Shown here: positions 739-17,980 of the stretch, piece by piece
How positions within the stretch are numbered: the stretch's first letter is position 1
Layout: every line of letters begins with the position of its first letter
Made by a program: the position numbers and the translations under genes
The notes under the pieces: generated by a model
Databases searched by the model: none
What the model saw: the letters and a program-made list of their open reading frames with translations, nothing else
Told to the model about the DNA's origin: nothing
DNA from: Rhizodiscina lignyota
Lineage: Eukaryota
Direction of reading: 5' to 3'
NCBI GenBank assembly: GCA_010015805.1
Contig: ML978124.1
Location: forward strand, 2,480,001 to 2,544,000
Length of the DNA: 64,000 nt

Positions 739-3700
739 CTATCTCTGCTTGCTCCTCCGGACCAGAATCAGGAGGAAGAATGCGATAACGCGATAGGTCG
801 TGCCTATCCCAAGTAGCACGACCATATCCAACCAAAATCTGCCAAACACTAATCCCAAAGCTTGTGCTGCATCATCGATCTGCCATAGATAACTGACTGG
901 CATAACGTTCTCGCTGTAGTATACCTCCGCGATCCAGACACCAGGACTAGCTCGCCAGAGCCAAGTCATGTGCCATTGTGCGACCTGGTTCAGCGTTGGA
1001 GCGAAGCCCGAGAGAATACCAACGATCAAAGATGCCATGGTGGCAAGAAGTGGGCCGTCTTCGCGACGGGTGAGCATCGAAACGCAAGATGCGAGGCCGT
1101 AAATGCAGTAATAATACAAGAGGTTGACGACGAATGCTTTCAGCCAGTCTATGCGAGGCGTAGCAAGGAGCATGAAAAAGACTGTGAAATGATAACAACC
1201 GAGGATGATGCGAGGAAGCGTAGCAATGACTTTGCCCATGTAGTACGAGAAGCGGTTGTGGCCGGAAGCCGCCTCCCGGCGGTAGGTAAGCTTCTCCTCA
1301 CCAAACACCTTCACACCTGGGGCAGAAGAGGTAAGACCAAGTGCGATGGCGACGAGGAGCGCCAGGATAGAGAGGGTTTGGTAATCGATAGATGAAGAGA
1401 GATATATGTAGTCGTCGTGATAAATGCCATGGAAGAGAGCGCCGTCTTCGCCATTAAGCGCTAGACCAATCAGGAAGCCGGCCAAAGAAGCAACACCAAT
1501 CTCGAACCAGAATGCTGCTTTGAGTCTGTATTGCTGCAAGAAGCTTCGAAGCATACAGAAGTAGAATTGGGTATAAAAAGGGGCGCCACGTCGTCTTATC
1601 GACTTCTTAAGAGAGTGTTGTTCTCCATATGCACCCTGCATTTGGGACGGTCCTCGTGAGTCTCGATTTGTGGAAATGTTCGCCCAATGCTCGATCAGAG
1701 ATTCCTTCGAAGTGTCACCAGCCCGCTTGTATGGCCGTCCTGCACCTGTTATGATATCCATCAGCGTGTCGGCGGGATTAGAGTGCTCTGGAAAGTCAAA
1801 GCCTGCACGTTCGAAGTAGCCTTGTACATCGCGCTCCTTGCCCTGGTAGATTAGCCTGCCGTTGGCGAGAAGAATCAAATCGTCAATGGCATGGAAAATC
1901 TCTTCTCGAGGCTGGTGGATAATGGTGACGACCGTTATGCCAAGTCGAGCAAGAGCTGAAAGGATTTTCATTATATGCGAGGCAGCTGTAGCATCGAGTC
2001 CAGATGTCGGTTCGTCCAGGAACAGAGCCATGGGTGCAGCGGCAAGTTCCATGCCAATGCTCACTCGCTTCCTTTGACCACCAGAAATAACAGGCTTGAC
2101 AGGGCTGCCAACGAGTGAGTCTTTTACATGGCCGAGCTGGAGGCAATCAATGAGAATGTCGACATGACGCTGAATTTCTCGGTCACCCCAGTTGGACGGC
2201 AGCCGTATGCGAGCTGAGTGCAGGATATTTTCGCGTACAGTCAATTCTGCTAGGACAATATCATCCTGGGGGACATAGCCAATAATTTTCTTGTAACTGC
2301 GCAAGTTAATTATTAATCGAGTTGGCCTGGAACGTCTGCTGGCAAACTTACTGTGACAGCTTATCGCGTACACCATTGACCTTCACAGATCCAGTGTGCT
2401 TCTGCTTGCCCATCAACACATTGACAAATGTTGATTTTCCGGCGCCAGAGCCTCCCAAAATACCCACCAGCGAGCCTCGAGATATCTCGCCGGTAATGTT
2501 GGACAATACAGGCTTTGGTGCACCTTTTGGCCAAAAGCCCAGATTATCGAATTCGAATGACAGACCGAATTGTGCACCCTCAATGCATTTGGAAAGCGAG
2601 CCTACGAATTCTCTCAAATCCGTATTGCCCTGGTCAATATCCTCCTTACTGCTAGCATCATAGGCGGCAGCGTGCATATCAAATTGGAAGTCGTCCATTG
2701 GGCCCAGAAAACCTGTTGGTGCACGTTGCATAGATCTCACACGAGGCTCGAGCTGAATTGAATCGTCGTCAAGCGTCTTGTAGCCGGTAGTTCGCTTTTG
2801 AGGCATAGAGCGTATTATCTTCGAGAATCTCGATGGTTTCCCACCCCCGGGATTCTTGCGTTTGTCATTTCGACGCTTGATTATCCAGGCGAAAAAGGTG
2901 GCCACGATGAGACCGATGTCGACGATGACTAGAAAACAGAGCGGCAGCCAAGTCTGATCTTTGATTGAACCTTCATGGCAAATGCTACCGGCACTGCATG
3001 AAACGGGTTGGTATGACCCTGCTGGACAATAGCTCCCATAGGGGCATGTAATAGGTTGTCCAGAACCCAAATCTCTGGGACAGTATTTGCCTGAAGGACA
3101 TTTTAGTGGCTCAAAGTACCCCATGGGAACACCGCAGTCGGCTCCTCCCAGCCTCCCATGCAAGCATTGTTCGACTGGCGTGCAGTATTGAGGGAGTATA
3201 TTGATTGTAGCATTCTGGCATTGGAAGCCTGGGTAACATCCTGTCTTGTTCCACGAGGTTGAATTTTGTATCGTCAGGGGAAGCGCTCCCGAGAAGCAAG
3301 TGGCCGCGGCGGTTGGTGTCTGCTTGTTTGCTATCTGCTGTTGTGCGCCGTAGTAGGATTGTGACAGTTCTGTGACATTGTGGCCGGTGCACGCTCGATC
3401 GAAGATCGAGAGAGGATCCTTTTTGACAGAGTTGAGGGCGACAAGACTCTGTCGGGAGCCTGGTTCGGCGACGAACGCTGTGTGGTTGTTCGGTCGTAAC
3501 GAGTCGTCGTTGACGGCTAGTGCGTGAGGGTCGATGGCAGAATTGTCTGTCTCAGGTTTGTACCACTTCCCAGACACTCCCTGATAGATGTTCTGATTCT
3601 TCTTATTGCTTCCAAGACATCGCCATGCTGTCGTCTGGTCGGCACCCTGGAACTCTTGAAGTGCACACAGACAATTTCCCGAGTCGATGAATTGAGGGCC

Positions 3701-3748
3701 TTCAGGAGGGCTTTCGGAGAGCGGAAGACCAAACGAGCTGAGTGACAT
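739..3748 (-). CDS. ABCG-type half transporter with N-terminal Cys-rich ectodomain and extra TM helix
   Basis: Two ORFs joined by intron 2297-2351 (GTAAGT..GCAG). Walker A GGSGAGKST, Q-loop GYVPQDD, signature ISGGQRKRVSIG, Walker B LFLDEPTSGLD, H-loop IIHQPR, then a C-terminal TM domain. The N-terminus has CPxGxYCP-type repeats and a TM helix (WLPLCFLVIVDIGLIVATFFAWII). Start is uncertain (ATG 3748, or a possible upstream exon from ATG 3869). Confidence 0.9.
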
Positions 3749-4815
3749 TATCGAATGCAATTGCCGCTCCTCGAGTCTTCCAGCGGTGCTGAGAGACGTC
3801 CAAGATCAAAGGTATAGGAGGGAGGGAAAACGCGAGCCCGGAGGACGCGAGGAGTGTAGCGAGAGCCATCGTGCAGCTGAAATTATATTTGAACTAAATG
3901 GGCGTAAGGCGGAGTCGAGTACAGGCCAGAAATTAGCTAAACGCAGCGCTGGCCAGTTCGCAAGCGTGTGGCTGAAGGGTCAAACTGGATGCGGCTGCAA
4001 CGATATGCGTCTTTTCGTCCTAACATCGACTAACGTTGTTCCGACCTTATGCCAAGCTTGGGAACGTGCGCATCTTTAGCCAGAAGCGGCATAGCGCGTC
4101 CGCGGGACTGGCTATATTTGGGGGCTGTACCAAACCCTACAACACTCCACATCTCCCTCCAACAGGCATCTTTGCCCTCCTTCGCAACAGACGGTCGCTC
4201 CATGGACTGACTTTGCGAGATCTGCAGCCGGGGCGCAGTCTGTGCCCCGCGAGCGTGCTGCATAAGTGACGTTCCTTGGTGTCTTCATCCCATCATTTGG
4301 CTCCTTCTACTCTTCATCCGCTCTTGTGCTCAAATGCCGTCAGTCGTGGATCAACCTTGCTCAGCCCTCAGTTCTTGCCCATCGCATTCCTTCGTCGAGG
4401 AGCTTGTGAACAGTCTCGTCATCGCACAGGGAAAGAAGTGCCTTTCCGCTGTTCACGCGGCCTTTACACAACATGATGCGTTTCAAAAGTAGAAGTCCCT
4501 GATGTGGGATGCCGTGAGCCCGTCCAAGATATTCCGATCGAAGTTCGCGTTTCACTTCTCTCCCTTTTTGGTCAGTCACGTTATTTACCAAGGTATGAGG
4601 TCCTTGTTTCACGAGTTATCCATTTGAAGCCGGTATGAAATTTTCTACGAACATTCTTCGTTGGCCCTTGCATAAGCGCGTCAAAGCCAGGCAAATCTAG
4701 AATGTTCAGATTCCCAGTCAGAAGACTTCTCCCTGAGATTCTCAGGAGAATATTTCACGACTCTTTTGGGAGTTAAAGCAGCTTTGGGATCGAGTTATTG
4801 TGACATACTGCCACC

Positions 4816-7331
4816 ATGCCTAGCTTCGGGACGACGAACTTTAGGACAGCGCCATTTCAGCACGCTCGAGACGGATCCGGTGGTTTCGAGCTTGGCCATG
4901 ATGCGCCGGTGTACGACATTGAAAATGGAGTGGCTCAATCATTGCCGGCCCTGGACATGCTCACGCTCAGTGCTGAACGACTTCAATCACGTTCACCTGC
5001 CGCCGCTCTCAGCAACGGTGCAGACTATCTGCAGACAGGCCAGAATGCTCTCAACATCATCATTCCGATGGGTGGAGTCGGTCAGAGATTTGCAAAGGAA
5101 GGATACCGTCATCCCAAGCCTCTGATCAATATTGTGGGCAAGCCAATGCTCTGTTGGTTGATTGAGCGGCTCTCAATCTCTCCGATCGATACTCTCTGGC
5201 TTGCAATCAATGAAGATATTGATGATGAGTTTCATATTGGGGACAGTGTCAGGATCTGGTTCCCGAAGTGCGATGTGCGGCTTGTGCGTCTGAAGTATCT
5301 CACCAAGGGAGCTGCCGAGACAGTAAGTTCGTCTGTTTGAGGTTGGATTGTCACGCGCTAATATGCATAGGTGTTTATTGTGACCCAAAGCATGCCTCTA
5401 GCCCATCGTACCAGACGAACTGTCTCCTTGGACTGCGATACGATCTACTTTGCTGATATTCTAGAGGACGTTCGCTGCATGAAGAGTGGTCATGGTGGTT
5501 GCTTCTACTTCGAAGATCAAGGAAACAAGCCCATCTTTTCATATATTCAACTATGCGAGGAGACGGGGCTCATCACAGCCATTAAAGAGAAAGAAGCGAT
5601 CTCCACCAAGGCAAACACAGGAGCGTACGTCTTCCCTTCTGCTGAAACCCTCGGCCTATGGGCAGCAAGAACTCTCGACGGCATCCTCGAATCAGAAAGC
5701 AAGCAAGTCGGCGAGTACTATACGAGTCAGTTAATTTCATCGATGATTGCGAGTAAAGAAGTCCCATTCTGCGCATTGCACGTTCGGAAAGAAGATTTCA
5801 GCTGCGTAGGAACGCCTATTCAGCTCGAAGACTTCCTTCTCAGGATCCAGAGTCAGGATGCCACCGTCAAGCCTTCAAGCCGGCGATTTTGCTTTGACCT
5901 GGACAAGACGCTCGTCGGCCCACCTCAAGTGCCCGGAGACTATTCGACGTGTCCGCCAATTTGGAGAAACATCAAGCTGGCCCGAGCTCTTCACAAAGCC
6001 GGCCATAAAATTTTGATTCACACGGCTCGCAGAATGAAAACTCACAATGGAAATGTGGGTGCAATAATTTCAGACATTGGTCTCGTCACTCTTCAGAGTC
6101 TGGAGAGGTACGGCATCCCACATGACGAGTGCAAGTTTGGCAAACCATACGCAGATGCGTATATTGACGGTAAAGATATTCAATGCTGCAAATTCTAGTC
6201 GTGATATAGCTAATGCATATTCCAGACCTTGCTGTTCACGCCAATTTGGATACATTCCGAGAGATTGGGTGGCTCGCGGAGCAAGATGCTGCGTCTGGCA
6301 GCAACCTTCTGGCAGAAGTCCATCACGCACGCAAACAGGGCATGGCCCCAAGCCGTGCTTTCAATATTGTTCAAGTCCGCGGAGAGCAGATCATCAAAAG
6401 CTCGCAGTCCGAAGCCCATATCTTAGGAGAGATGTACTTCTACAGCCATCTTCCTGACTCCATCTCAAACCTGTTCCCACAAGTGCACGAGTTGACTTAT
6501 CTCCCGGAAACAGCAACGTACTCAATCACTATGCAGAGACTTCGGGGTACAACATACTCTCATATGATCACTGGGCGATCCTTAACTCCAGGCCGGCTCG
6601 AAATCATGCTCGGCGCTCTCCACCAAATTCACAATGCGGATACAGCAACAACGAAGCAGCTGGAGGTGTGTGAGTACCTGAAGGAAAAGTTTGCCTCGGG
6701 ATCATCGAAGCCAGTGAACATTTACGCGAACTACAGCCGCAAGCTGAAGCAGCGCTTTCATCAGCACGAGGAAGTTTACGAGGAGCTCGACCTGAAGAAG
6801 GCTTCTGAGACCCTCAACATGTTGACCGCATTCCTGGAGCGTTACGAAGCTGCCAATCGAGCTCTAGAAGTACCAGTCATTCACGGCGATCCAGTCTTTT
6901 CGAACATCATACTCAACGAGTCTGAGCGGAAAGTCTATTTCTTCGACGTTCGATCTCAGCAGGGCGATGCCCTGACAATGGCTGGTGATGTCTGTTACGA
7001 TCTTGCCAAGGTGCTGCAGAGCATCCAAGGCTATGACCACGTCATGCTTACGGACGAAGAGACGTTGTCAATGCTGCCACAAACTCCTGAAGCAGATGGC
7101 CTTGCTACCATCGTCCCGGTCCAGGACCGCTTGTTAATGAAAGAGATGCAAGAAGTGTTCTGGCGATTCGTTGAACGCGAATACGGAGCGAAAATCAGCA
7201 AGCAGGACATCCTAGACATTCTGGCCAGCTTGTTGTTTTCCCTTATTCCGCTTCATCGGAAGGAAAGGCGACCACTGTTCTGGAAGATGTGCCGCAATGT
7301 CTTGGAATTCGGGTCTGCATGCCCAGTGTAA
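4816..7331 (+). CDS. Three-domain nucleotidyltransferase / HAD phosphatase / APH-choline-kinase-like enzyme (~803 aa)
   Basis: Exons 4816-5322, 5371-6169 and 6226-7331; introns GTAAGT..ATAG and GTAAAG..CCAG both keep frame. Domain 1: IIIPMGGVGQRF..PKPLINIVGKPML..GAAET..DCD. Domain 2: FCFDLDKTL, HTARRM..GNVG, FGKP, YIDDLAV (the DD is created by splicing intron 2). Domain 3: IHGDPVFSNII, FFDVR, GDVCYDLAKVLQS. Confidence 0.88.
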
Positions 7332-7534: not shown

Positions 7535-9933
7535 ATGCTGTCACTAGACCTGAGCCATTTCATGACGCCGGCGTATGCTGCCGCTCTTGGTCTGATTGTC
7601 ATACAAACAGGAATTGGTATTCTCTTCAAGGCAGCCCAGACAGGTGGAAAGTAAGCATCATATCATCTTCGAGTCTTATCAATGGACTAACCTTTGGATA
7701 GATATGCATTCTCGTCTGCATCCTCAGTTGCAATATCGGAAACGTTGAAGTTCGCCTTATCCACGGTGCGCTTTTACAGGGAGCTAAGAAGCCGGCCGAA
7801 TCCTTCTTGCAATGTAACAACCAATACCACGTCGGAGAAGCTGGAGAGCGGCGAGAAAGATGAAAGCAGCCGACGAAATTCCGAATCAAATGAATCGGAC
7901 GAAACTTTGCTTAGCGATGTCGAGGAACAGGCAGTTGCCTCAGATGACGATGCTCGACTACACTTGCGCGACTGGAAAGACTTCGGCGACTGGAGAGCCT
8001 TCTGGCAATGCTATCTTGCAGAAGTTCCGTTGGAAACACGATACGGCTTTGCGCATCTAGCACTATTATATGTGCTCATCAACAACCTGGTTTTTGTGCT
8101 CTACCGTCTCTCCGACCCTGGTACCATTTCGCTCATCAAGTCTGGCGGTACACTGATTACAGCGCTGGTCATGTATATGTGCTTGGGCACGAAGCTTGTC
8201 AAGGGGCAGTGGCTTTCTATCTTACTTCAGGTACGATTCAACTAATTTCGAGCGCAAGCTTGAATCTAGCGCTAATATAATGCAGGTATCTGGTCTCATA
8301 GTCACCCAGTACGATCCAAAGAATGGCTCATCATACCCTCTTTCCACATACAGTGTCCTGTGGTTCCATACTCTACTCAGCGCTGTCTCCGGAGTTTACA
8401 ATCAGACTCTCTGCCAGGGCTCCAAGGCATCGCTTCACGCTAACAACATGGCGCTGTACGGTCCTGGTGCTGTTACCAACGTTTGCTACTACTTCATCAT
8501 CCGCATCCTGAAGCCCGATGAGCCCGGATTCTTTTCTGGATACACCAGTATTGGTGCATTAATGGTTATATTATCGAATGTCTTCATCGGATTGGCGATG
8601 ACCGCCGTATACCAATGTATGGCTTCCTTCAATATCTCGACAGTTGGTACACTACGGGAGGACTGACTATTCTGCAGATGCGGACGCTGTGATTAAATGC
8701 TTTGCTACAGCAATTTCCACTGGTATCTTGTTATATCTTTCATACTTGATATTCGGGGCGACCTTCTCTGCTCTCGCCATACCCGGTACAGCGGTTGTTT
8801 TTATCTCAACGTATATATACATGGATTCAACACCTCCGAAGGATAGCACAGCAGCGTCTGGATCAGGCAAAGATGCGATGAATTCTGGCCTGGAGGACAA
8901 CACTGATGAAGAAAATTTACTACAGAGCTTGACTCCCAATGTATGTGTTGAAATTTCTTGGTTCACCCTGTCACTTACGCAATCACAGGGCCATCGTCGG
9001 AGTCTCGGCTTCAGTATCACCTTTACCCTTTCTGCTATGCTCATCGCCTTGCTCACACTCTGGAACTCCCATCCTCCATCTAACCCCTCTCCTTCCCCCA
9101 AGCAAGGACCCCTCCAATCGCCCTTCCGCAATACCCTCGCAATCGTCCGCTTTGAGGACCAGTACGAGACCAGTGTCGCGCCCATGGTGCTTCAAGGCTA
9201 CTCGCCGTACTTCCACAGCATGCATCTTAGCCAGGGTAACTGGGAGTCAGATGAGTCAAACGAGTTGAACATTAGTCACGACTACTTTGACACCAATACT
9301 GCGCCGTACGCACCAGTTGCAAAGATCGCACAGAAGCTTCTTGAAGAACCTGACTCTGGAATCGAAGGGATCTTGTTCTTCAAAGATACATCCTGGCTCC
9401 GACCGTTGGCTTTCGCAGAAGATACGGAGCGTATGTGGCTGCTTGACAGCCCTGACGGCCGATGCTTCAGCGGCATCAGCGCCATGGGAGGCATGTCCAA
9501 CGATGATGGAGCCAACGTCGCACCTCGCCTTGCCGTACAAGCTGCCAACACAGCGCGCGAGATGGATACCAACTATGCGATTAATCAGAATGCCTGGTGT
9601 AGTGGATGGAGCGACATGTTCTATCTTCCGCGACGGTTCTTCAAGGATTTCGTATTCCTGGGGGATATCTTTGCCAGTACTTCAGTTCCGGAGCACACTG
9701 CCATTCCGACGATATTCCACATCATTGATAATACGTATCGTCGACATCCAGCCATGTCGCTGATTGAGTTGATCGGAGACTGCTGGAATCCTAAGCATGC
9801 TGAGAGTGAAGGTGGACTGGCGGCGGAGGAGGTTGTGTGGAGACGTTGCGGCCAAGGATTTGACTATGAGAATGAGAGCGTGGTTATTGCGCATTATGAC
9901 CGGCTGGAGGAGGACGCAGCTGGTATGGAGTGA
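7535..9933 (+). CDS. Nucleotide-sugar transporter (SLC35A-like) fused to a C-terminal lumenal glycosyltransferase-like domain (~727 aa)
   Basis: Exons 7535-7650, 7702-8230, 8286-8616, 8678-8940 and 8989-9933. Splice phases are compatible, and the last intron is 48 nt, in frame and stop-free. Transporter motifs: SETLKF, ALLYVLINNL, DPGTISLIKS, SAVSGVYNQ, GFFSGY, AVYQYADAVIKCF. These are followed by one more TM helix, a P/S stem and a ~270-aa soluble domain. Confidence 0.85.
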
Positions 9934-10022
9934 GTATGCTGAAGACAGTGTTTCGAACGTAAGAACAATTCATTATTGTTTCTATATATCGGCGTTCGGT
10001 AAATATTGGGATAAAGAATGAT

Positions 10023-11174
10023 CTATTTCTCGTACACCGTCCCTTCCGCTGCTCTCACAAGCTTAAGCTCCTCGTCCAATCTTTTGAAATGCGCCTCAGC
10101 AATGTGCATCGAAGTGGCATAGTTGAGTCGATGGCCACATCGTCTCCATTCGACATCCTCCGGGATCGAAACATCGAAACAACAACTACCCCAGCAATCG
10201 GACAGACGATAGATGACAGACCGCCAGGGGGTCTTTCTTCTCCTTCGATCAATTATGTTAAATATCGTCGGCGTTGCCATCTCATGAAAGACCTCTGCCT
10301 CCGTGAAGTACCGGCTCAGAGCGATGAAGTCGCCGAAATACTGGCGCGGGATGTAGTACATGTCGCTCCATCCTGTACAGTATTCTGGACTTCCCACATC
10401 ATATCCTTCGATGCCATTTGCGATGGCCCTGAGAGCCTTCCACATGCGCCCCTCGTTATCCTCGGGCGTTTGCAACCAGTGCCATTGCGGGTAGCGGCTC
10501 TTGTCCTTCATGCATACGTAGTATGGTGCCCCGTCCCCGACACCCATACTCGCACTGTCGAGAACCCAGATGCGCGTGAAGTCCATATCAAAGAACTTCA
10601 TCGGGTCGACCCACGCATCGAAGTGCATGAACCAAACGCCTGTGATGTTTTGTACGTGGCGGTCGCCTACGAAACCTTCAGGCCCTGAATGGCCGTCGTG
10701 AGTTGCCTCGATAGGTCCTTCGGAACTGGAATTCAGAATGGAGGCCATGAGATTTGCAACGCCTTGGTAGCCCGTCCAGAAGCTCCAATAGTTGTCATGT
10801 GTGATATTGAGGAAGTATTGCTCGCCCGAATCGACGACGTTATTCGGGTGAGAGATGTGTATTGTGTGAAAGAACGGCTCGTATTGCATCAGTAGTGGTA
10901 TCCTCTCCGGGTGTGCGTCGCTATTCAATCTAATATATGCCACAGTATTCTTGAATGGCGAGACATCTCTCCTCTCGCCGGGATTGTTATGCAAGTCGGG
11001 CCCGGATGGTGAAGGAGAGAGGGTGGACGATTCCCATGTCCGCCATACTTCGTCGTACTGCTTCTTAATGTTCGAGGAATCTTGCAAATAGATCACGATT
11101 ATGAGAGTGACAAGCAGAACGTAGAGATAAATGTTGTTGCGGTGAAGGCCGGATCTGTGGAATAAGGAACCCAT
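10023..11174 (-). CDS. Type II membrane putative glycosyltransferase, paralogue of the domain fused to the adjacent transporter
   Basis: Intronless 383-aa ORF with a short N-tail, one TM (IYLYVLLVTLIIVIYL), a S/P stem and a soluble domain with WFMHFDAW, GWSDMYYIPRQYFGDF, VFHEMATPTIF, DCWGSCC and RCGH. It aligns colinearly by eye with 9118-9933. Confidence 0.8.
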   Translation of the reverse strand: MGSLFHRSGLHRNNIYLYVLLVTLIIVIYLQDSSNIKKQYDEVWRTWESSTLSPSPSGPDLHNNPGERRDVSPFKNTVAYIRLNSDAHPERIPLLMQYEPFFHTIHISHPNNVVDSGEQYFLNITHDNYWSFWTGYQGVANLMASILNSSSEGPIEATHDGHSGPEGFVGDRHVQNITGVWFMHFDAWVDPMKFFDMDFTRIWVLDSASMGVGDGAPYYVCMKDKSRYPQWHWLQTPEDNEGRMWKALRAIANGIEGYDVGSPEYCTGWSDMYYIPRQYFGDFIALSRYFTEAEVFHEMATPTIFNIIDRRRRKTPWRSVIYRLSDCWGSCCFDVSIPEDVEWRRCGHRLNYATSMHIAEAHFKRLDEELKLVRAAEGTVYEK

Positions 11175-13022
11175 GTTGGACTAGTTACAAAAAGAAAATC
11201 AAAAGGAGAATTAGAAAGATACCGAATTGCCGGTGGTGCGTCTAAGAATCGCGAAAGACGCGAGCATGGATGCTGTGGAATGCATCTGCAATCCCTCGTT
11301 CGAGACCAGGGAGCAAGGAGATTGAGGCTGGCATTTGTATCTCAGACAATGAAAAGGCTTCCACCGGAGTTGTACGTGGTTATCGGGATCAACTGGATTG
11401 CATAACTTCGCTTCTCGAGCCGTTTGCTACCGTAAGGGATCATTTACGGTGGCGATGGGGCCCATCTCATCGGTTGAAGCCGCGGCCTGCTTTGATCGTC
11501 AACAACACTCTCAGAAGGATGTCGAGTGCTTTTAGTAAACTCCAATTTCAGCATCAGCTCTATAGTCAAGGAGATTTTCCATGCACCGAATTCAAGTTGA
11601 TCGAGCATATGGCAAGCTGTTGGTCGACGGTATTCAGGTCTGAAGACATTGAAGTGAAGTGACTTTGTTAGAGTTTTAGTTCATCGCCACCCGAAGCTCC
11701 ATTAACCTTATCACCCGGGCGTTGTAGCGTGAGAGTGAGACTGATCCATCTTCAAAGTCCAACGTCAAGGACCGCTTGATGTGTCGCAATTTAGGACATT
11801 TGTGGTTCGACAAACAAGAGGATTTGTGAAACCCAGTCTCAAAGTACATATTTACAGAAACCCTTCCCTAAGAAGGAGCCCCACACTTCTGCAACCGCGG
11901 AATGGGTGCTCGGCCCGTTCTTTGCTTTTGTGCTCGAAGCATATCCATAGTCCAGCATCGATTGCCCTACATATAACAAGGTCTGCCAGAGATGCCTGTC
12001 AGCAACGCAAACATACGAAAATTGTCGTCGTGCAGACGGTGATGCTCATCATCTTCAAGCGGCGCCCAGCCGTTGCGCCGAATGCCATCTCCGAACTGGT
12101 CGCTGCAGCAGCTTTGGATCATGTCCTTTCAAAACACAGATGAGACGATTCTCGAAGCCAACCATGACCAGTGTCTCGTACAGGCTCTAGATGCAAATCT
12201 GAACCTGATATTGGTATTATCTTGTAGCGGTTCCACAATGGAATCGATGGAGAGCTAATGGCCAAACCCATATTCTCCCTTCGTGTCTGACAATGGATTG
12301 GTGGGACTCGTATTTATCTATCAGGCTCATAGAGCATAAATATCCGACAGCAATATAGGATACCCTCCTCATCACTGTTGAAGTCATTCGCTAAAATAAT
12401 CATCGACCAGCACGGTACACTAAATCCAAGGTCTCATAGCTGCCGAGTATTAAGTTGTTGAAGGCTTTAATGTAGGTCTCTTTGCTCAGGCCTAAAGGAG
12501 AAATTCTTGAAGAATGAAACTAATCTAGTGCAATGTTACTAAATAAGGGATTTTGCCGGACAGTCTTTATACGATATGACGACTTCGATCTGTAACGACG
12601 ATAGAGTTTCGATGTGACGTTGGGTCTTGCTGCATTGACCAGGCTCTTTCGTAGTTTCTAGAAGCTCATTTCGATCGTCAGCACCTTGCGGGTGGATGTT
12701 CACATCACAACTCCTTAAACCGAAGAGGTAAACTATCATTTATCGATAGTTACAAAATCAATTCTGGCCTTTCGCGGCCTGGTATCATCGTGTAAAAGTG
12801 AATAAAAGAGGCCTCCCTGTAAAATAAATCCAACCGCCGCTTTTCCGAATCCCGAATCGGCTGTTTAACTGAAGCCATAAGCCTTAGCTCGCCGACAATT
12901 GGAGTAGTAATATCGTTAGAATCCCGGAACATAGCCGAAAAATGTTCATGAGTAAATCATGGATAAGAAGTAAGATCCTCCACTGCACTCCGGACACCTG
13001 AAATCCTCATCCGTACTCCATA

Positions 13023-16000
13023 TCACTCCGAATCATCGCCCAAGTCGATGAAATCCGGCATTCTCTCCTTCGCAGGTGTCTCCTGCCTCGCCAAGACAGG
13101 CTCTTGCGCGCTAACGCTCCTCAGCCTCTCTGTGGCTGGAGTCCTACTCGACATCCGCGAGTCCTTCGCTACCTCCTCCTTCGGCTTCCACTGCCCGTCC
13201 ATTTCAACAACAATAGCCCTTGTGTCTAGCGCATTCCTGTCTGCAAGCGCCCTGCGCACATCTACCAGAAACCCATCAACCACCAAATTCTGTGGTCTTG
13301 CATCCTCCTTGCAGATTGGACACGCCCACACATCAGGCTGGCTCACGACCGCTTCATTCGTATCCGGATCGTGGATGGTCTTGCGCGTCGCCAGGAACGT
13401 CTCAAGGTCGAAGCAGTCGCGGTGCCGGCATTTCAAGCCACGCACTGGGACATCGTAGATCGAGCATGCGGAGAAGGGGTCGAAGAGAGTGATGCTGAGG
13501 TTCGAGTCGATGATCGCGATGTCGTCGTCATCTGTCGATGGCGTAAGCGAAATCTTGATCGCATCGATGGACTGCTGTGCAGGGATGACAGCGGCGTCGA
13601 CGCACAGGCGGATTACGTCATGGGGCAGTGTTCTGACCATCTCGACGGCGAAGAGATACTGGAGTGGGGTAAGGTCAGTGGGAGGATAGTTGGCAGAGAC
13701 TTCAATTGTGTTTTTGCCCTCTTTGACGAATGGGGTGATGTCGATGGGTATGTCCTTGCCGTACGTTGACTTTTTCTTCTGTTCTGTCAAGTGTCCGTTT
13801 ACTTCAAAGTAGAGGTACGGCGGCCAGACGTTCTCGCCCATTGCCCATATGCTCTCGTCGTTTAGCACACCTTGCACTTTCCTGACGCAGCGAATACGGT
13901 ACGTGACCGCGTCGGGGAACATGTTACGGATGGGTGGCTCGCCACCTTCGGAAGGCATGTCCTGTGGTACTTGGGCGAAGACTTTAGCCGAGATTTCGAA
14001 GTCGCATGTCTTGATATATACGTTCTGGGGGAAGGCAAACGGAGCAAAAGCAAGGCCTGCCATGAACTGGTAGAGTTTTGGTTTGGTTGGCGAAGTGTTG
14101 TTCGCAGATAGCTCTCTTCTCTTCAAAGTCGGGCTGCGAAGGTGGGCGAGATGTAGTCCGCTTTTGTGGGGCTCAGGGACAAGTCGAAGTGCCTTTAGAT
14201 GGCCGACAGGAGGAAGTAGAGAGTTAGGAACAGACGGAGGAGGTTGCTGCTGAGAGGGTGCCTGCTGGTGATATACATGCAACTCTTCAGCGAGGTTTCT
14301 TTGTGCTGCAGTTTCCAGTGGTGCAGGCCACGGTTGCGGCGCGATAACCATCGTGTTCCACTGCTGAGCCGAACCTACCTGCGTCTGCACTTGTGCTGGT
14401 CGGAACATCGCCGCCGGGCCAGGAAGGACATGTTGTTGCGCCTGCGAGTTCTGCACTGGACCTGGTATCACACGTCCACCTTGTGGCTGGGCCTGTACTA
14501 GACTGTATGTGGAACGCATCGCATTTGAAGGGATCGGATGCGGATTGATCGAGACCGTCCCAGGGGGGAACATCCCAGGCGGCAGTTGCTGTCCAGGATT
14601 GCCAGTTGGGCTTGCGGGTTGTGAGAAGTTGTTGACTGGCATAACAGGCCGAACTGGATAGTTTGGGTCAAGTAATGGAGCGAGAGGACTGGTCTTCGGT
14701 TCAGCATTCAGGAGTGGATGTTCCTGATTATCTTGGTGAGAGCGTTGCAGGATTTGGTACTGTCGGATGTACCAGTGGTGAAACTCATCCACTAATGGTA
14801 CACTCATGCGACGGTTCGAATGCGCAGCAAGTATACGGTTCCACTCCTCTTGATTCTTCATGAATAGCTGTTCGGCCCTCCTGGACCAGCGGGATATACC
14901 CATTCCCCAGATGCAGCGTAAGATGGACAGGAAGACAACATTCTGAAGCACTGCCGAAGTGGCGCCAAGGATCTGCATGATTTCGTTCACTAGCGGTGGA
15001 TACTTTCGTTTTTGACATTCTATTCTGAACTTGTGCCAATTGACAACGATAAGAGTAGTGAACTTTCTGAAAGTCGAAAACTTGCTTTCAAACAAGCTCG
15101 GAGCAGATCGGGCAATCTCATGGAGCGGAGCAGGAAAGATTGTGAACCATCCAAGCACTCCTGAAGTGAGACTTTGATTCGGGGTGAGCAGAAAGTCCAG
15201 CGTCTCGCAAAGGGCTTGAAGTTGGGGTAATTCATGGATATACTGCGGTAGGGCGAAGTGATCAAAGGCTGCGAGGCAATATATCTGATGAGTCAAGAGG
15301 TATGTGATGTCTTGACGTTCGCTTGCCTGTCTTAGAAGGTTAATCCTCTGCTTCTCGAATTCACTAAGGGGCCGGATTCGATTATTGCTGGGACGGAGGA
15401 ACGAATCAATCTGTGCGATAAGCCGTTCTCGGTTGAACACTGCGTTCTGCTCGTGCTGCTGGAGCTGAGCCGGGACTGGACTCAATTGTGGGCTCACTTG
15501 TACGCGTGTGGGTGGACCAGACTGTCGCCGAAGATGCTGCGGGGGTTGTATTGGAGGTGGTACAGTTGGGCGATTGCTGGATGCTTGAGAGGCATGCTGC
15601 AAGTTTTGAGTTGACATCTGAGGCGCACTTGGGCGTCTACTTGGTACTTGAGGGGCGGGCTGTAAAGTTTGTATCGGGGGCCGAGGACCACTTGAGTATC
15701 TGATTGGTACTTGTGCAGATCGTTGCGGCCCATGAGACGTGGTAGATGAGATAGAAGGCCCATTGCCATGAGTAGTGGTAAATCGGGATTGCTCGTGCGC
15801 TTCTGGCGGACCTGGCGGCATAGAGCCCAGTGCAGAGCCTGGCTGCTGTAGCATTGGTCGACTTAGTTGATGACATGTACTTGCAGTATCCATGCTGCGA
15901 GATGGTTCTTGACGATACGCGTTTCCGACAACCTGTGCGCTACTGGTGCCTTGCGAGTGTCTAGAGCCAACATCATCATTATTGCCGGGTTCTTGGTATG

Positions 16001-16799
16001 TTTCTTCAAGATCAATTAAGATGGGCTCGTGAGCAGGCTCGGAAACAGGCGCAGGTTCTACTGCATCAATGGTGATTTGGCCCACCTTGGCAACAGTAGT
16101 TGGAGCTTCGGTCTGCCCGTCAGAATCAGTACGGCCATGATTCTCGCCACCTGCTGGCCACACTTCCGCATCGCCTGTCTCTTCTGAAAGATTGTGTATA
16201 TGTTGCATTAAACGTTGCCCATCGAGTCGAATCTGCTTAGACGGGGAAGTGGCCGGGTGCTCTCCAGGAGAGGCTGCGCGTTTAGGAGCTTGAGAGAGCG
16301 ACTTGGTGCGGCGTGTGATGTCGACCTCACTGGCCACGGTGGACGCATGTGCAGCATCTTCGCTCGTGCTTGGTGCAGGAGAAGGCAGGATGCTGCCCAG
16401 CACATTGTCTGCCTCTGCACTGTGCCTGCTACTCATGGTAGGGTTGGATCGCGAGGGAGGAGGCGGACTCGATTTCCGAGGAGCAAAGGAGTTTGGAAGC
16501 TGAGGAGAAGTGGAAGTCGAGGGCGTCTCGCGCGGAGCGACTCTGATCGTGTCATCTTCAGTCGGAGCTTGCCGTGACGTAGTTGTGGGTGGATTGCGCT
16601 GCTCTTGTTGTCGCCGCGGAGCAGGAGCATCACGTATTGCTGCTCTCGACGAAGGTGAAGAAGATGCTGCTGCTGCTCCACTCATCCATGACCTCGACTT
16701 GCCACCCAGGAACATGTTCAGAGTGGCATTGGAGGAGGCCAAGTGGTGTGCCACGGCTTGGTCCGACATATTGACGCTGGAGCGGCGGTGAGGAGACAT
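13023..16799 (-). CDS. MIZ/SP-RING zinc-finger protein (Siz/PIAS/Zmiz-related)
   Basis: 1258-aa ORF with a long P/Q/S low-complexity N-terminus. C-terminal SP-RING: ITLFDPFS..PVRGLKCRHRDCFDLETFL..WACPIC..LVVDGFL. Ends in a SIM-like FIDLGDDSE. Confidence 0.88.
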   Translation of the reverse strand: MSPHRRSSVNMSDQAVAHHLASSNATLNMFLGGKSRSWMSGAAAASSSPSSRAAIRDAPAPRRQQEQRNPPTTTSRQAPTEDDTIRVAPRETPSTSTSPQLPNSFAPRKSSPPPPSRSNPTMSSRHSAEADNVLGSILPSPAPSTSEDAAHASTVASEVDITRRTKSLSQAPKRAASPGEHPATSPSKQIRLDGQRLMQHIHNLSEETGDAEVWPAGGENHGRTDSDGQTEAPTTVAKVGQITIDAVEPAPVSEPAHEPILIDLEETYQEPGNNDDVGSRHSQGTSSAQVVGNAYRQEPSRSMDTASTCHQLSRPMLQQPGSALGSMPPGPPEAHEQSRFTTTHGNGPSISSTTSHGPQRSAQVPIRYSSGPRPPIQTLQPAPQVPSRRPSAPQMSTQNLQHASQASSNRPTVPPPIQPPQHLRRQSGPPTRVQVSPQLSPVPAQLQQHEQNAVFNRERLIAQIDSFLRPSNNRIRPLSEFEKQRINLLRQASERQDITYLLTHQIYCLAAFDHFALPQYIHELPQLQALCETLDFLLTPNQSLTSGVLGWFTIFPAPLHEIARSAPSLFESKFSTFRKFTTLIVVNWHKFRIECQKRKYPPLVNEIMQILGATSAVLQNVVFLSILRCIWGMGISRWSRRAEQLFMKNQEEWNRILAAHSNRRMSVPLVDEFHHWYIRQYQILQRSHQDNQEHPLLNAEPKTSPLAPLLDPNYPVRPVMPVNNFSQPASPTGNPGQQLPPGMFPPGTVSINPHPIPSNAMRSTYSLVQAQPQGGRVIPGPVQNSQAQQHVLPGPAAMFRPAQVQTQVGSAQQWNTMVIAPQPWPAPLETAAQRNLAEELHVYHQQAPSQQQPPPSVPNSLLPPVGHLKALRLVPEPHKSGLHLAHLRSPTLKRRELSANNTSPTKPKLYQFMAGLAFAPFAFPQNVYIKTCDFEISAKVFAQVPQDMPSEGGEPPIRNMFPDAVTYRIRCVRKVQGVLNDESIWAMGENVWPPYLYFEVNGHLTEQKKKSTYGKDIPIDITPFVKEGKNTIEVSANYPPTDLTPLQYLFAVEMVRTLPHDVIRLCVDAAVIPAQQSIDAIKISLTPSTDDDDIAIIDSNLSITLFDPFSACSIYDVPVRGLKCRHRDCFDLETFLATRKTIHDPDTNEAVVSQPDVWACPICKEDARPQNLVVDGFLVDVRRALADRNALDTRAIVVEMDGQWKPKEEVAKDSRMSSRTPATERLRSVSAQEPVLARQETPAKERMPDFIDLGDDSE

Positions 16800-17980
16800 G
16801 ATGCGACTCGTGCAGCGCTAGCAGCACACTATAAGCGATACTCGCCACGCTCAGCAGTGAAGCTATCCAATCCCCAATAATTCAGGTGTATGAGCAAAGG
16901 ATTGTGTTCAAGTGCGGGTCGGAGAAGTCTCATGTCTTTCCTCTCCGCGGACGCGGCGTAATTGTTTCACTGCTACACCTAGAGTCCCTGCCGGGTCGCG
17001 TTTGGACGGCAACCGGCGGTGAAGAAGAGAGGGAAGCGGCGTCCATGGGCGAGAGAAGATGGAGGATTGCATCTGAGAGAGAGTTGGGGCAGCGCGAACT
17101 TCTTTGTTCCCGCGAAACCAGGAGCTTCGGCGGCGCTGTATCGACGAGGTGAGGTGAGGTTGCACGCGAGGGAAAAAGCAAGGAAAGCCGCCGAACGCCC
17201 ACGCTCATTGGACGCCGGCTCTCCCCACATACATAGATGGACAGATTGCTAAATACTGCTATTCCAGCCTCGCTTCTAGCGCCGGCCTCTCGAAGAATGG
17301 AAGCGTCCATGCTCGCAGTGCACGCACGTTGGCTGTGCCAAAAGTAGCGGGCCCCAAGATGAGGATATCCGGGTGTCTCCTCCATTGGGCATGGGGTAAT
17401 ACGGCGCACAATATCGATGATTTGCCTTACACGCTCGTAGAGTGAGCATTGGCCGGGATGTGGCTGATATTGTGGTGTTCGTAATAGATACACGCGCCGC
17501 ATGCGGGCTAGCGGCGATGCGGCGCTTCGCTTCCTTCCCTGTGCTGCTGCTGGCCCAACCCAACCTCTCGTGCTGCAGTGCCAGCAATTCACTCTCTTCA
17601 TCCTCGCCCTTCCACCGCGACCGCCTGCACTCCTCCTCTCCGCACTCTGCCTGCTGCTCGCCCTCTCTATTTCCTTCTTGCTGCTCCCTCCCGACCGCTC
17701 GTGCGACGCCCCGCTCCACGTCCCGCCGGCTCCTAATCCCTGCCGAATTAAATCATCACTCACTCTGCTGAGTCTGCCACGCTTTACTCTCCATCTGCCG
17801 CCCTCTCAACCGCGCGCTCCCGAGCGAACGATCGCATTCACACTCCTCTGCAGCTGCTCGAGCTCCTCAACTCTTCACCCCTTTCACATGCGCCCAATTA
17901 TGGAAATTCCGAACCAACCGAGTTGATCCAATTGAACATATCAAGCCTCAGGTAGCCACTGGCAGTGGAAGTTCTGAAGG

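Follow-up and report, generated by a model that had tools for sequence, protein, structure and literature searches.

A three-domain protein of Rhizodiscina lignyota resembling a bacterial three-gene capsule cassette, and its linkage to genes for a nucleotide-sugar transporter and STELLO-like transferases

The capsule of Pasteurella multocida type B was described as a chain of N-acetylglucosamine and N-acetylmannosaminuronic acid (GlcNAc–ManNAcA) with side chains of fructose and glycine: bcbABCDI were enough for the main chain, mutation of bcbE or of bcbG gave a polymer without fructose, a bcbF mutant was not obtainable, and addition of the fructose was predicted for BcbE, BcbF, and BcbG (PMC13552107). 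Deletion of kfoE in Escherichia coli K4 gave unfructosylated chondroitin, and KfoE was hence called a fructosyltransferase (PMC7925653 and PMC8858990). The window analyzed in this work was a stretch of 64,000 nucleotides from Rhizodiscina lignyota (assembly GCA_010015805.1, contig ML978124.1, positions 2,480,001 to 2,544,000), and its gene of interest, at 4816–7331 (+), encoded one predicted protein with three domains in series: a sugar-1-phosphate nucleotidyltransferase (NT), a capless HAD phosphatase, and a small-molecule kinase (KIN) of the APH/choline-kinase fold. To judge from their sequences, all three domains share descent with one bacterial three-gene cassette of the BcbE/BcbF/BcbG or KfoE type. 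This tri-domain protein was probably a cytosolic enzyme with three activities, which would turn a common sugar phosphate into a nucleoside-diphosphate-sugar (NDP-sugar) for use in Golgi glycans. New here was the linkage of its gene to a nucleotide-sugar transporter and a STELLO-like transferase, in a cluster conserved in fungi. The gene structure, the three folds with their motifs, the cassette homology, the taxonomic spread, and this linkage were directly supported by the comparisons below. A first-pass annotation of the window had named fructose branches on P. multocida type B/E capsules, which the loss of fructose in mutants of bcbE and bcbG bears out (PMC13552107).

Three open frames between 4804 and 7331 were joined into three exons of 803 codons in all: (i) exon 1 (4816–5322, +; residues 1–169), with a variable N-terminal tail and the start of the NT domain (GGVGQRF and PKP); (ii) exon 2 (5371–6169, +), with the remaining NT domain (LDCDT, EKE, and ANTGAYVF) and most of the HAD domain (DLDKT, HTARR, FGKP, and YID); and (iii) exon 3 (6226–7331, +), with the end of the HAD domain, a linker, the kinase domain, and the stop codon TAA at 7329–7331. 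Intron 1 (5323–5370, +; 48 nt) had a GTAAGT donor, a CTAAT branch site, and an AG acceptor, its length being frame-preserving and its sequence containing a stop codon; intron 2 (6170–6225, +; 56 nt, phase 1) had a GTAAAG donor, a GCTAAT branch site, and a CAG acceptor and interrupted the second Asp codon of the HAD motif DD. The ATG at 4816, the first after an in-frame stop, was taken as the probable start. A public entry of 737 aa, P0004 ([quoted passage not shown]), started at residue 60 of the 803-aa model, thereby missing its first 59 residues, and stopped 7 residues before its end; it was 100% identical over exon 2 and crossed both splice junctions as modelled (...GAAET/VFIVTQ... and ...AYID/D/LAVHANL..., slashes marking the junctions). 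The earlier reading of three open-frame fragments as one spliced protein of about 803 aa was confirmed.

The catalytic motifs, which that reading had called intact in all three domains, were present in the translation (GGVGQRF, PKP, and LDCDT in NT; DLDKT, the T in HTARR, GKP, and DD in HAD; HGDPVFSN, FDVR, and YDLAK in KIN) and fell on invariant or nearly invariant columns of the 28-sequence family alignment A1, in which invariant positions are numbered here after P0004. The similarity of the protein to its relatives can be taken as more than chance: exon 2 matched 789 longer proteins at E ≤ 0.001 among 2312 candidates, and an exhaustive search with the whole protein gave 499 cluster representatives at E ≤ 1e-30. 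Intron positions differed among the relatives (residues ~110, ~326, ~360, or ~645, versus 110 and 376 in the window), and two close relatives (L023 and L024) were intron-less. In three loci (L025, L026, and L032), in-frame stops at first suggested a variant genetic code; a better reading of them was that of short introns that keep the frame, as intron 1 of the window does.

Database entries for this family already existed, under names that were given automatically and disagreed among themselves, and without an assigned function. Homologue names in UniRef and NCBI included "Mannose-1-phosphate guanyltransferase" and "protein phosphatase 2A A subunit", and they would make the protein an ordinary mannose-1-phosphate guanylyltransferase, choline kinase, or "protein phosphatase 2A subunit" with add-ons; a related possibility was that separate genes had been misjoined. 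Such explanations are scarcely credible, given that the names conflicted with one another, that 105 homologous genes (60 metagenomic ones and 45 on viral contigs) carried the three domains in one uninterrupted frame, that the junctions agreed with the public model, and that the domain matches described next lay elsewhere.

The NT domain (5044–5865, +; P0004 residues 18–275) was interrupted by intron 1. PF00483 matched P0004 at 21.5 bits, a marginal pass of the 21.2-bit cut-off, and matched 17 of the 28 family members at E ≤ 0.01; conserved residues in A1 included G27, G28, G30, and R32, and E183 and K184 were invariant. Together with this score, the GGxGxR loop and the EK pair before the (S/T)xxANxGxY strand, both of which we take to be NT motifs by analogy with RmlA, placed the domain among the sugar-1-phosphate nucleotidyltransferases. 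The A1 profile matched PDB entry 4evw_A (a 255-aa "nucleoside-diphosphate-sugar pyrophosphorylase") over the whole domain at E 2.8e-14. In a full-length AlphaFold model of the protein (pLDDT 82.9, pTM 0.79), the top Foldseek match of the domain was again 4evw_A (Vibrio cholerae RC9; TM 0.73 by target), followed by RmlA, GDP-mannose pyrophosphorylase, and GlmU. GDP-mannose pyrophosphorylases 7x8j_A and 8yre_D matched profile positions 8–73 only (E 3.7e-5 to 6.3e-5), versus the whole-domain match of 4EVW, and the NT domain was followed by HAD and not by the C-terminal left-handed beta-helix of a full-length GDP-mannose pyrophosphorylase. This partial match set the domain outside the ordinary GDP-mannose pyrophosphorylases; a place among them was what the first-pass annotation had named as counting against its reading. 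Weak matches were also obtained with MurU, HddC, IspD, and MobA-like cytidylyltransferase models. The nearest relatives, besides 4EVW, were small NT proteins encoded beside BcbF-like genes, and the earlier description of this domain as BcbE-like can stand with the name BcbE taken from gene order only. Fructose in the lipopolysaccharide core of V. cholerae, the source of 4EVW, was considered as a further correlate and set aside, as the paper checked for it gave nothing.

The HAD domain (5878–6281, +; P0004 residues 280–395) was interrupted by intron 2. All four motifs of the HAD superfamily (DxDxT, Thr/Ser, Lys, and the acidic pair) were present, and D286-L-D288-x-T290, T328, K368, and D376-D377 were invariant in 28 of 28 family members. 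The A1 profile matched PDB entries 1xpj_A (126 aa; E 7.2e-21) and 9iqw_A ("capsule biosynthesis protein", 134 aa; E 5.7e-11). The nearest curated family was TIGR01689 (EcbF-BcbF, HAD class IIIC), which matched P0004 at E 2.9e-13 and 49.8 bits versus a cut-off of 162 bits; the fused SAR11 and giant-virus proteins described below scored 66.9 and 62.1 bits, respectively, and a standalone bacterial protein (L013) scored 216.9 bits. Of the earlier assignment to EcbF/BcbF, the nearest family was retained and membership was not, the fungal domain being a distant relative far under the cut-off.

The kinase domain (6339–7328, +; P0004 residues 415–737) was modelled with AlphaFold2 (pLDDT 85.9) and had the APH/choline-kinase fold. 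VIA-align gave Z 15–18.5 between this model and more than 40 members of the fold, including maltokinase, glucosamine kinase, and APHs: LxmK (Z 18.5, root-mean-square deviation [rmsd] 4.2, 273 aligned), LicA 4r77_B (Z 17.7, rmsd 3.3, 241 aligned), methylthioribose (MTR) kinase (Z 16.9), and NahK 4ocj_A (Z 15.8, rmsd 3.6, 267 aligned); Foldseek TM was only 0.4–0.5. K434, E445, H596, and D617 were invariant in A1, and D598 and N603 were nearly so. The bilobal fold, the Lys-Glu pair, the HxDxxxxN loop, and the metal-binding Asp together identified an APH/choline-kinase-like domain; PF01636 scored 20.0 bits, below its 23.2-bit cut-off, and matched 11 of the 28 family members. The kinase profile matched no solved kinase in PDB by sequence, choline kinases included, and the choline/ethanolamine kinase family PF01633 gave 14.3 bits versus a cut-off of 29. 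The domain accordingly lay outside the choline kinases, where the first-pass annotation had likewise looked for a possible refutation, and its likeness to LicA was tied with that to many other families at the level of fold.

The LicA/LicC system (and its LicCA fusions) resembled the window protein in combining an APH/choline-kinase-fold kinase with a cytidylyltransferase of the NTP-transferase fold; it differed in having an amino-alcohol substrate and no phosphatase and in handing its product on as a phosphodiester through LicD. Activation of a phospho-alcohol in this manner, giving a CDP-alcohol or an omega-linked sugar (choline, ethanolamine, glycerol, ribitol, or a CDP-6-fructose type) to be passed on as a phosphodiester, was suggested by the place of LicA among the top fold matches beside several choline/ethanolamine kinases, by the weak IspD and MobA-like matches of the NT domain, and by one SAR11 locus in which 4 kb separated a LicD-family gene from the fused gene. 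It seems quite improbable all the same: the top NT matches were sugar-1-phosphate enzymes (4EVW, RmlA, GlmU, and GDP-mannose pyrophosphorylase), the linked fungal partners resembled GT-A-type glycosyltransferases and not LicD/fukutin, the phosphatase would have no obvious role in a LicA/LicC scheme, and the fructose of the K4 and P. multocida capsules was described as a sugar side chain (PMC13552107, PMC7925653, and PMC8858990).

The sequence comparison was then applied to bacterial relatives of the three domains. A TIGR01689 search of 401 sampled Pseudomonadota genomes gave nine genomes at E ≤ 1e-8 (four of them above the cut-off), eight of which encoded a standalone HAD protein of 132–157 aa. 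About 19 kb around each of these eight HAD genes was taken, and all open frames were scanned with NT, HAD, and KIN hidden Markov models (HMMs) cut from A1. In 8/8 loci, the HAD gene adjoined, and often overlapped, an NT gene (238–268 aa, one of 803; E 1e-15 to 1e-29), and it also adjoined a gene of 519–613 aa whose C-terminal half matched the kinase HMM (E 1e-14 to 1e-25). Both annotated E. coli loci, one a kps capsule locus of group 2 and the other the galF-gnd locus of O20, had the same three genes, so that the three HMMs matched adjacent genes in 10/10 bacterial loci. A comparison by hhalign of the C-terminal half of the bacterial kinase-bearing (KfoE-like) protein with the fungal kinase gave a probability of 99.65% (E 4.9e-25, 297 columns); with the HMM matches, it added the kinase, as part of the same cassette, to the bacterial origin proposed earlier. 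The bacterial kinase-bearing family had at least 2145 members among 7997 candidates scored, and when one cassette was used as query in a distant blastn search, 125 of 5426 complete E. coli genomes gave a match to it (query coverage 55–58% among the matches listed).

The bacterial cassette and the window protein thus belonged to the same families (small RmlA-like NT, capless HAD of ~130 aa [TIGR01689], and divergent APH-fold kinase) and kept the motifs HGDxxFSN, IDxRG, GDxxYDLAK, and (I/L)PLH. The bacterial genes stood always together, often overlapping, in glycan loci, and they differed from the fungal form in being three separate genes of variable order instead of one chain and in the TIGR01689 score given above. 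The names BcbE and BcbG were given to the cassette genes by gene order, with no P. multocida sequence in the comparison, and the E. coli NT protein was annotated by PGAP as "glycosyltransferase family 2". The gene order of the E. coli kps locus was like that which we take to be K4 region 2, whereby its 522-aa kinase-bearing protein would presumably be KfoE; no search output named KfoE. The extra N-terminal domain of the bacterial kinase protein had no GGxGxR signature and gave weak thymidylyltransferase matches only.

Several further occurrences of the cassette or of genes like it were observed: (i) in the E. coli O20:H12 galF-gnd locus (L022), the O20/O137 O-antigen cluster opened with three cassette genes, for HAD, kinase, and NT, at 8863–11575; the published O20 structure did not fit this cluster according to a review (PMC7685785), so that no sugar could be inferred for the cassette from O20, and the cluster may direct an uncharacterised glycan bearing the cassette's sugar; (ii) in the K4-like kps locus of E. 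coli TUM14697 (L021, 5149–10352), galE was annotated as frameshifted and the expected polymerase region was broken into several short "glycosyltransferase" and hypothetical genes, and this strain may not make the capsule; (iii) five IMG/VR contigs (L151, L152, L153, L156, and L157) carried the split form as neighbouring genes, encoding an NT (~476 or ~265 aa), a kinase (~325 aa) that had no extra N-terminal domain, and a HAD protein (~121 aa); and (iv) in the capsule locus of Campylobacter jejuni IA3902, the adjacent genes CJSA_1353–1355 (240, 507, and 132 aa), listed without an assigned function in Table 4 of PMC7901785, corresponded to the cassette's NT, kinase-bearing, and HAD proteins in size, the only property compared.

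The first-pass annotation had placed the fusion of the three domains in fungi, and this was contradicted by the spread of the fused form. Relatives of exon 2 belonged to numerous Ascomycota and to chytrids, aphelids, Catenaria, Rhodosporidiobolus, Capsaspora, and bdelloid rotifers, and others came from transcriptomes of marine protists. Among 26 pattern matches in the collection of prokaryote genomes were three full-length fused genes (two from Pelagibacteraceae and one from Prochlorococcus) with all motifs intact; these three loci had a G+C content of 23–28%, and the fused gene lay in glycan islands, among genes for GT2, GT4, and GT9 glycosyltransferases, sulfotransferase, and UDP-glucose dehydrogenase. 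Scans of two further collections yielded 65 loci (viral) and 228 relatives (metagenome), 80 of the latter being kept, with the counts of the two scans overlapping through some contigs common to both (L073 = L120; L092 = L148) and the label "viral" being the collection's own classification. In the viral contigs examined, PCNA, a capping-enzyme-like gene, or MutS adjoined the fused gene, and one such contig was AT-rich and 617,453 bp long; on giant-virus contigs the fused gene had as neighbours Branch-type, GT90-type, and galactosyltransferase-like genes, as well as genes for sugar epimerases/dehydratases. A glycan context was found in every lineage examined. The fused genes of giant viruses, SAR11, and Prochlorococcus had the same architecture and motifs as the window gene (613–665 aa) and differed from it in having no introns, no N-terminal tail, and no linked SLC35A transporter or STELLO-like transferase, with 31–39% identity to the fungal protein. 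A term search of the available part of a review of giant-virus glycans (PMC9614988) returned neither "trifunctional" nor "nucleotidyltransferase".

Phylogenetic trees were built from the three domain alignments set side by side, and each split cassette was entered with its three genes taken from a single locus. A quick tree was made with 97 rows; for the careful tree, 28 near-duplicates and one long row were dropped, and 69 rows were used. Fused and split forms separated at 100/99 (ultrafast bootstrap/SH-aLRT), and two contigs filed as viral with the split form (L151 and L156) grouped with the bacterial split cassettes. All eukaryotes formed one clade (100/99), nested among viral, SAR11, and metagenome rows and with one giant-virus metagenome-assembled genome as sister (100/100); within it, Catenaria, chytrids, Rhodosporidiobolus, and Ascomycota came together (99/94), aphelids joined them (90/66), and Ascomycota were one clade (100/100). 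These values were obtained under LG+G4 without a mixture, with skewed composition in many rows, a long branch for Prochlorococcus, and a root set by the split cassettes. It looks as if one fusion event predated the fungi and was followed by vertical inheritance within them. An ancient transfer into eukaryotes with later intron turnover would fit both the tree and the variable introns, its direction hanging on the rooting. With the same NT–HAD–KIN fusion in giant viruses, SAR11, Prochlorococcus, and non-fungal eukaryotes, the earlier annotation was correct in its observation, largely right in its domain calls, and wrong in its fungal fusion step.

Downstream of the tri-domain gene, in tandem and starting after 204 nt, lay a gene (7535–9933, +) for a proposed protein of 743 aa in which a nucleotide-sugar transporter of SLC35A type was fused to a STELLO-like glycosyltransferase (GT) domain. 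Its exons were 7535–7650, 7702–8230, 8286–8616, and 8678–9933, with splice sites read from the sequence. PF04142 (SLC35A-type nucleotide-sugar transporter, of the UDP-/CMP-sugar family) matched within the first three exons (two exons matched), and the last exon contained in one frame the final transporter helices, a linker, a membrane span, and a domain of ~300 aa without a Pfam family; transporter C-terminus and GT domain shared one open frame in the window and in L023 and L024. We know of no earlier description of a transporter–transferase fusion of this kind. A second STELLO-like glycosyltransferase gene (10023–11174, −), with one exon, an N-terminal membrane anchor, and no Pfam family, was 29% identical (E 7e-40) to the GT part of 8602–9933. 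This paralogue fell in the ESM Atlas beside PF03385 STELLO clusters from Rotifera and Cnidaria, and its top structural match was a cluster of 900-aa Ascomycota "UDP-galactose transporter" proteins with the same transporter–GT fusion. Its Atlas look-alikes were mostly from Rotifera and Cnidaria, and Rotifera also carry the tri-domain enzyme.

The linkage was examined by tblastn in the 14 eukaryote-like metagenome loci that were 40% or more identical to P0004 and had flanking sequence of 2 kb or more on one side. The transporter stood beside the tri-domain gene in 7/14 (L023, L024, L025, L026, L027, L037, and L087), in head-to-head, tail-to-tail, or tandem arrangement, and jackhmmer found the GT domain in four of these seven, the only contigs to give it, all four eukaryote-like; neither phmmer nor jackhmmer found this fungal partner in the bacterial or viral loci.

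The activity of all three domains, the order of steps, the nucleotide, and the sugar are inferred. In the proposed route, (i) the APH-fold kinase would phosphorylate the anomeric hydroxyl of a sugar phosphate, (ii) the capless HAD phosphatase would strip the other (omega) phosphate, and (iii) the RmlA-like NT would couple the anomeric sugar phosphate with a nucleoside triphosphate to give an NDP-sugar, which would enter the Golgi through the adjacent SLC35A-type transporter and be attached to glycans by the fused STELLO-like transferase and the neighbouring paralogue. Several kinases that act on the anomeric position of sugars have the APH fold, and MTR kinase and NahK were among the fold matches here. 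The heptose pathway runs from a kinase through a bisphosphate and the HAD phosphatase GmhB to a nucleotidyltransferase. In the NDP-heptose case (HddA or HldE, GmhB, and HddC or HldC), the logic from omega-phosphate over an anomeric kinase, a bisphosphate, a HAD enzyme, and a nucleotidyltransferase was the same as proposed here, GmhB was also a capless HAD, and HddC was among the weak NT matches; it differed in that its kinase was of the GHMP or ribokinase type and not of the APH fold, that it had an isomerase step, and that its enzymes were separate or otherwise paired. The likeness was one of mode of working and not of family membership. The kinase-first order was favoured because a ketose phosphorylated at the omega position is locked as a furanose and because of the heptose precedent; an order of kinase, bisphosphate, phosphatase, and NT acting on a ketofuranose is plausible.

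The same three activities could also run in a salvage order, in which HAD would dephosphorylate a sugar 6-phosphate (or another omega-phosphate), the kinase would phosphorylate the free sugar anomerically, and NT would form the NDP-sugar. The MupP/AmgK/MurU salvage of UDP-N-acetylmuramic acid in Pseudomonas cell-wall recycling follows this logic, with a HAD phosphatase, an anomeric sugar kinase of the APH fold, and a nucleotidyltransferase like RmlA working one after another to give an NDP-sugar; there the phosphatase comes first in a set of separate proteins, and apart from membership in the same superfamilies no specific sequence kinship with them was found. The anomeric kinases AmgK and NahK have the same fold, with NahK (Z 15.8) among the kinase matches and MurU among the weak NT matches, and nothing in the sequence decided the order of the steps. 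The salvage order is nonetheless unlikely: in solution, a free ketohexose takes mainly the pyranose form, phosphorylation of an omega-phosphate ester, which is locked as a furanose, would be the simpler way to a furanosyl donor, and capless HADs such as GmhB act on sugar bisphosphates.

Under the kinase-first route, the likeliest product would be an NDP-ketofuranose, possibly NDP-fructofuranose, by way of fructose 6-phosphate, fructose 2,6-bisphosphate, and fructose 2-phosphate; fructose was made the leading candidate by the bacterial genetics alone (bcbE, bcbG, and kfoE). If bcbABCDI make the main chain and BcbH adds glycine, BcbE, BcbF, and BcbG between them would also have to transfer fructose. 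It is speculation that the extra NT-like domain of the bacterial kinase protein is a possible fructose transferase, and equally so that its absence from the fused forms fits separately encoded transferases there. More tentatively, and in our judgement rather doubtfully, fungi, numerous further eukaryotes (chytrids, aphelids, Capsaspora, bdelloid rotifers, and marine protists), and giant viruses may make an NDP-ketofuranose (in the simplest case NDP-beta-D-fructofuranose) from fructose 6-phosphate by a kinase/phosphatase/NT route on a single polypeptide, the fungal transporter–GT fusion adding the sugar to Golgi glycans.

Several points weighed against this account of the enzyme and its sugar. 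The fused clade was only ~25–35% identical to its bacterial and viral relatives, so that substrate specificity may depart from that of the capsule cassettes, and about 20 kinase families were nearly tied at Z 15.8–18.5, so that the fold indicated no substrate. The bacterial kinase protein had its extra NT-like domain of ~220 residues at the N-terminus and the fused forms had none, and the mapping of BcbE, BcbG, and KfoE onto the NT and kinase-bearing genes came from gene order and from the presumed arrangement of the K4 locus. To our knowledge no fructofuranose is known in fungal glycans. In 7/14 loci (L031, L032, L033, L035, L064, L083, and L088), tblastn found no transporter within the flank present. 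The literature searched contained no biochemistry of the bacterial cassette proteins and no reported activity for any enzyme of the family, split or fused; of the papers listed in a search for an NDP-fructose donor, none dealt with glycan biosynthesis, to judge from their titles and the opening lines of their abstracts. For C. jejuni HS:1, the 849-aa HS1.08 was assigned the addition of fructose, and the 11-gene locus, as given in the available parts of PMC7901785 and PMC11924219, listed no cassette, so that the cassette would not be the sole route to fructosylation.

The activation of a ketofuranose for glycan transfer was not worked out in the literature searched, including the 2025–2026 capsule work on P. 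multocida and C. jejuni. Here the whole suspected pathway of sugar activation was carried in one soluble chain, and the intron-free versions (chytrids, Capsaspora, SAR11, and giant viruses), which would be easy to express, make the question directly testable. The transporter–GT linkage suggested that many fungi, among them insect and plant pathogens such as Fusarium, Colletotrichum, and Metarhizium, have a Golgi glycan modification so far undescribed, and the occurrence of the family in bacteria, giant viruses, and eukaryotes clearly exemplified the movement of a glycan module from one domain of life to another. If the fructofuranose proposal were true, an unrecognised sugar would be present in eukaryotic and viral glycans, and the long-sought donor for bacterial capsule fructosylation would be identified.

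Two other genes of the window were observed near the cluster. Upstream, an ABCG-type transporter gene (739–3805, −; ABC_tran plus ABC2_membrane) had at least two exons, and tblastn found no counterpart of it in the related contigs. On the other side, an open frame of 1264 aa (13023–16817, −) was rich in Pro, Ser, and Gln, and its C-terminal Cys/His pattern (CRHRDCFD...CPIC) resembled by eye an SP-RING/MIZ zinc finger.

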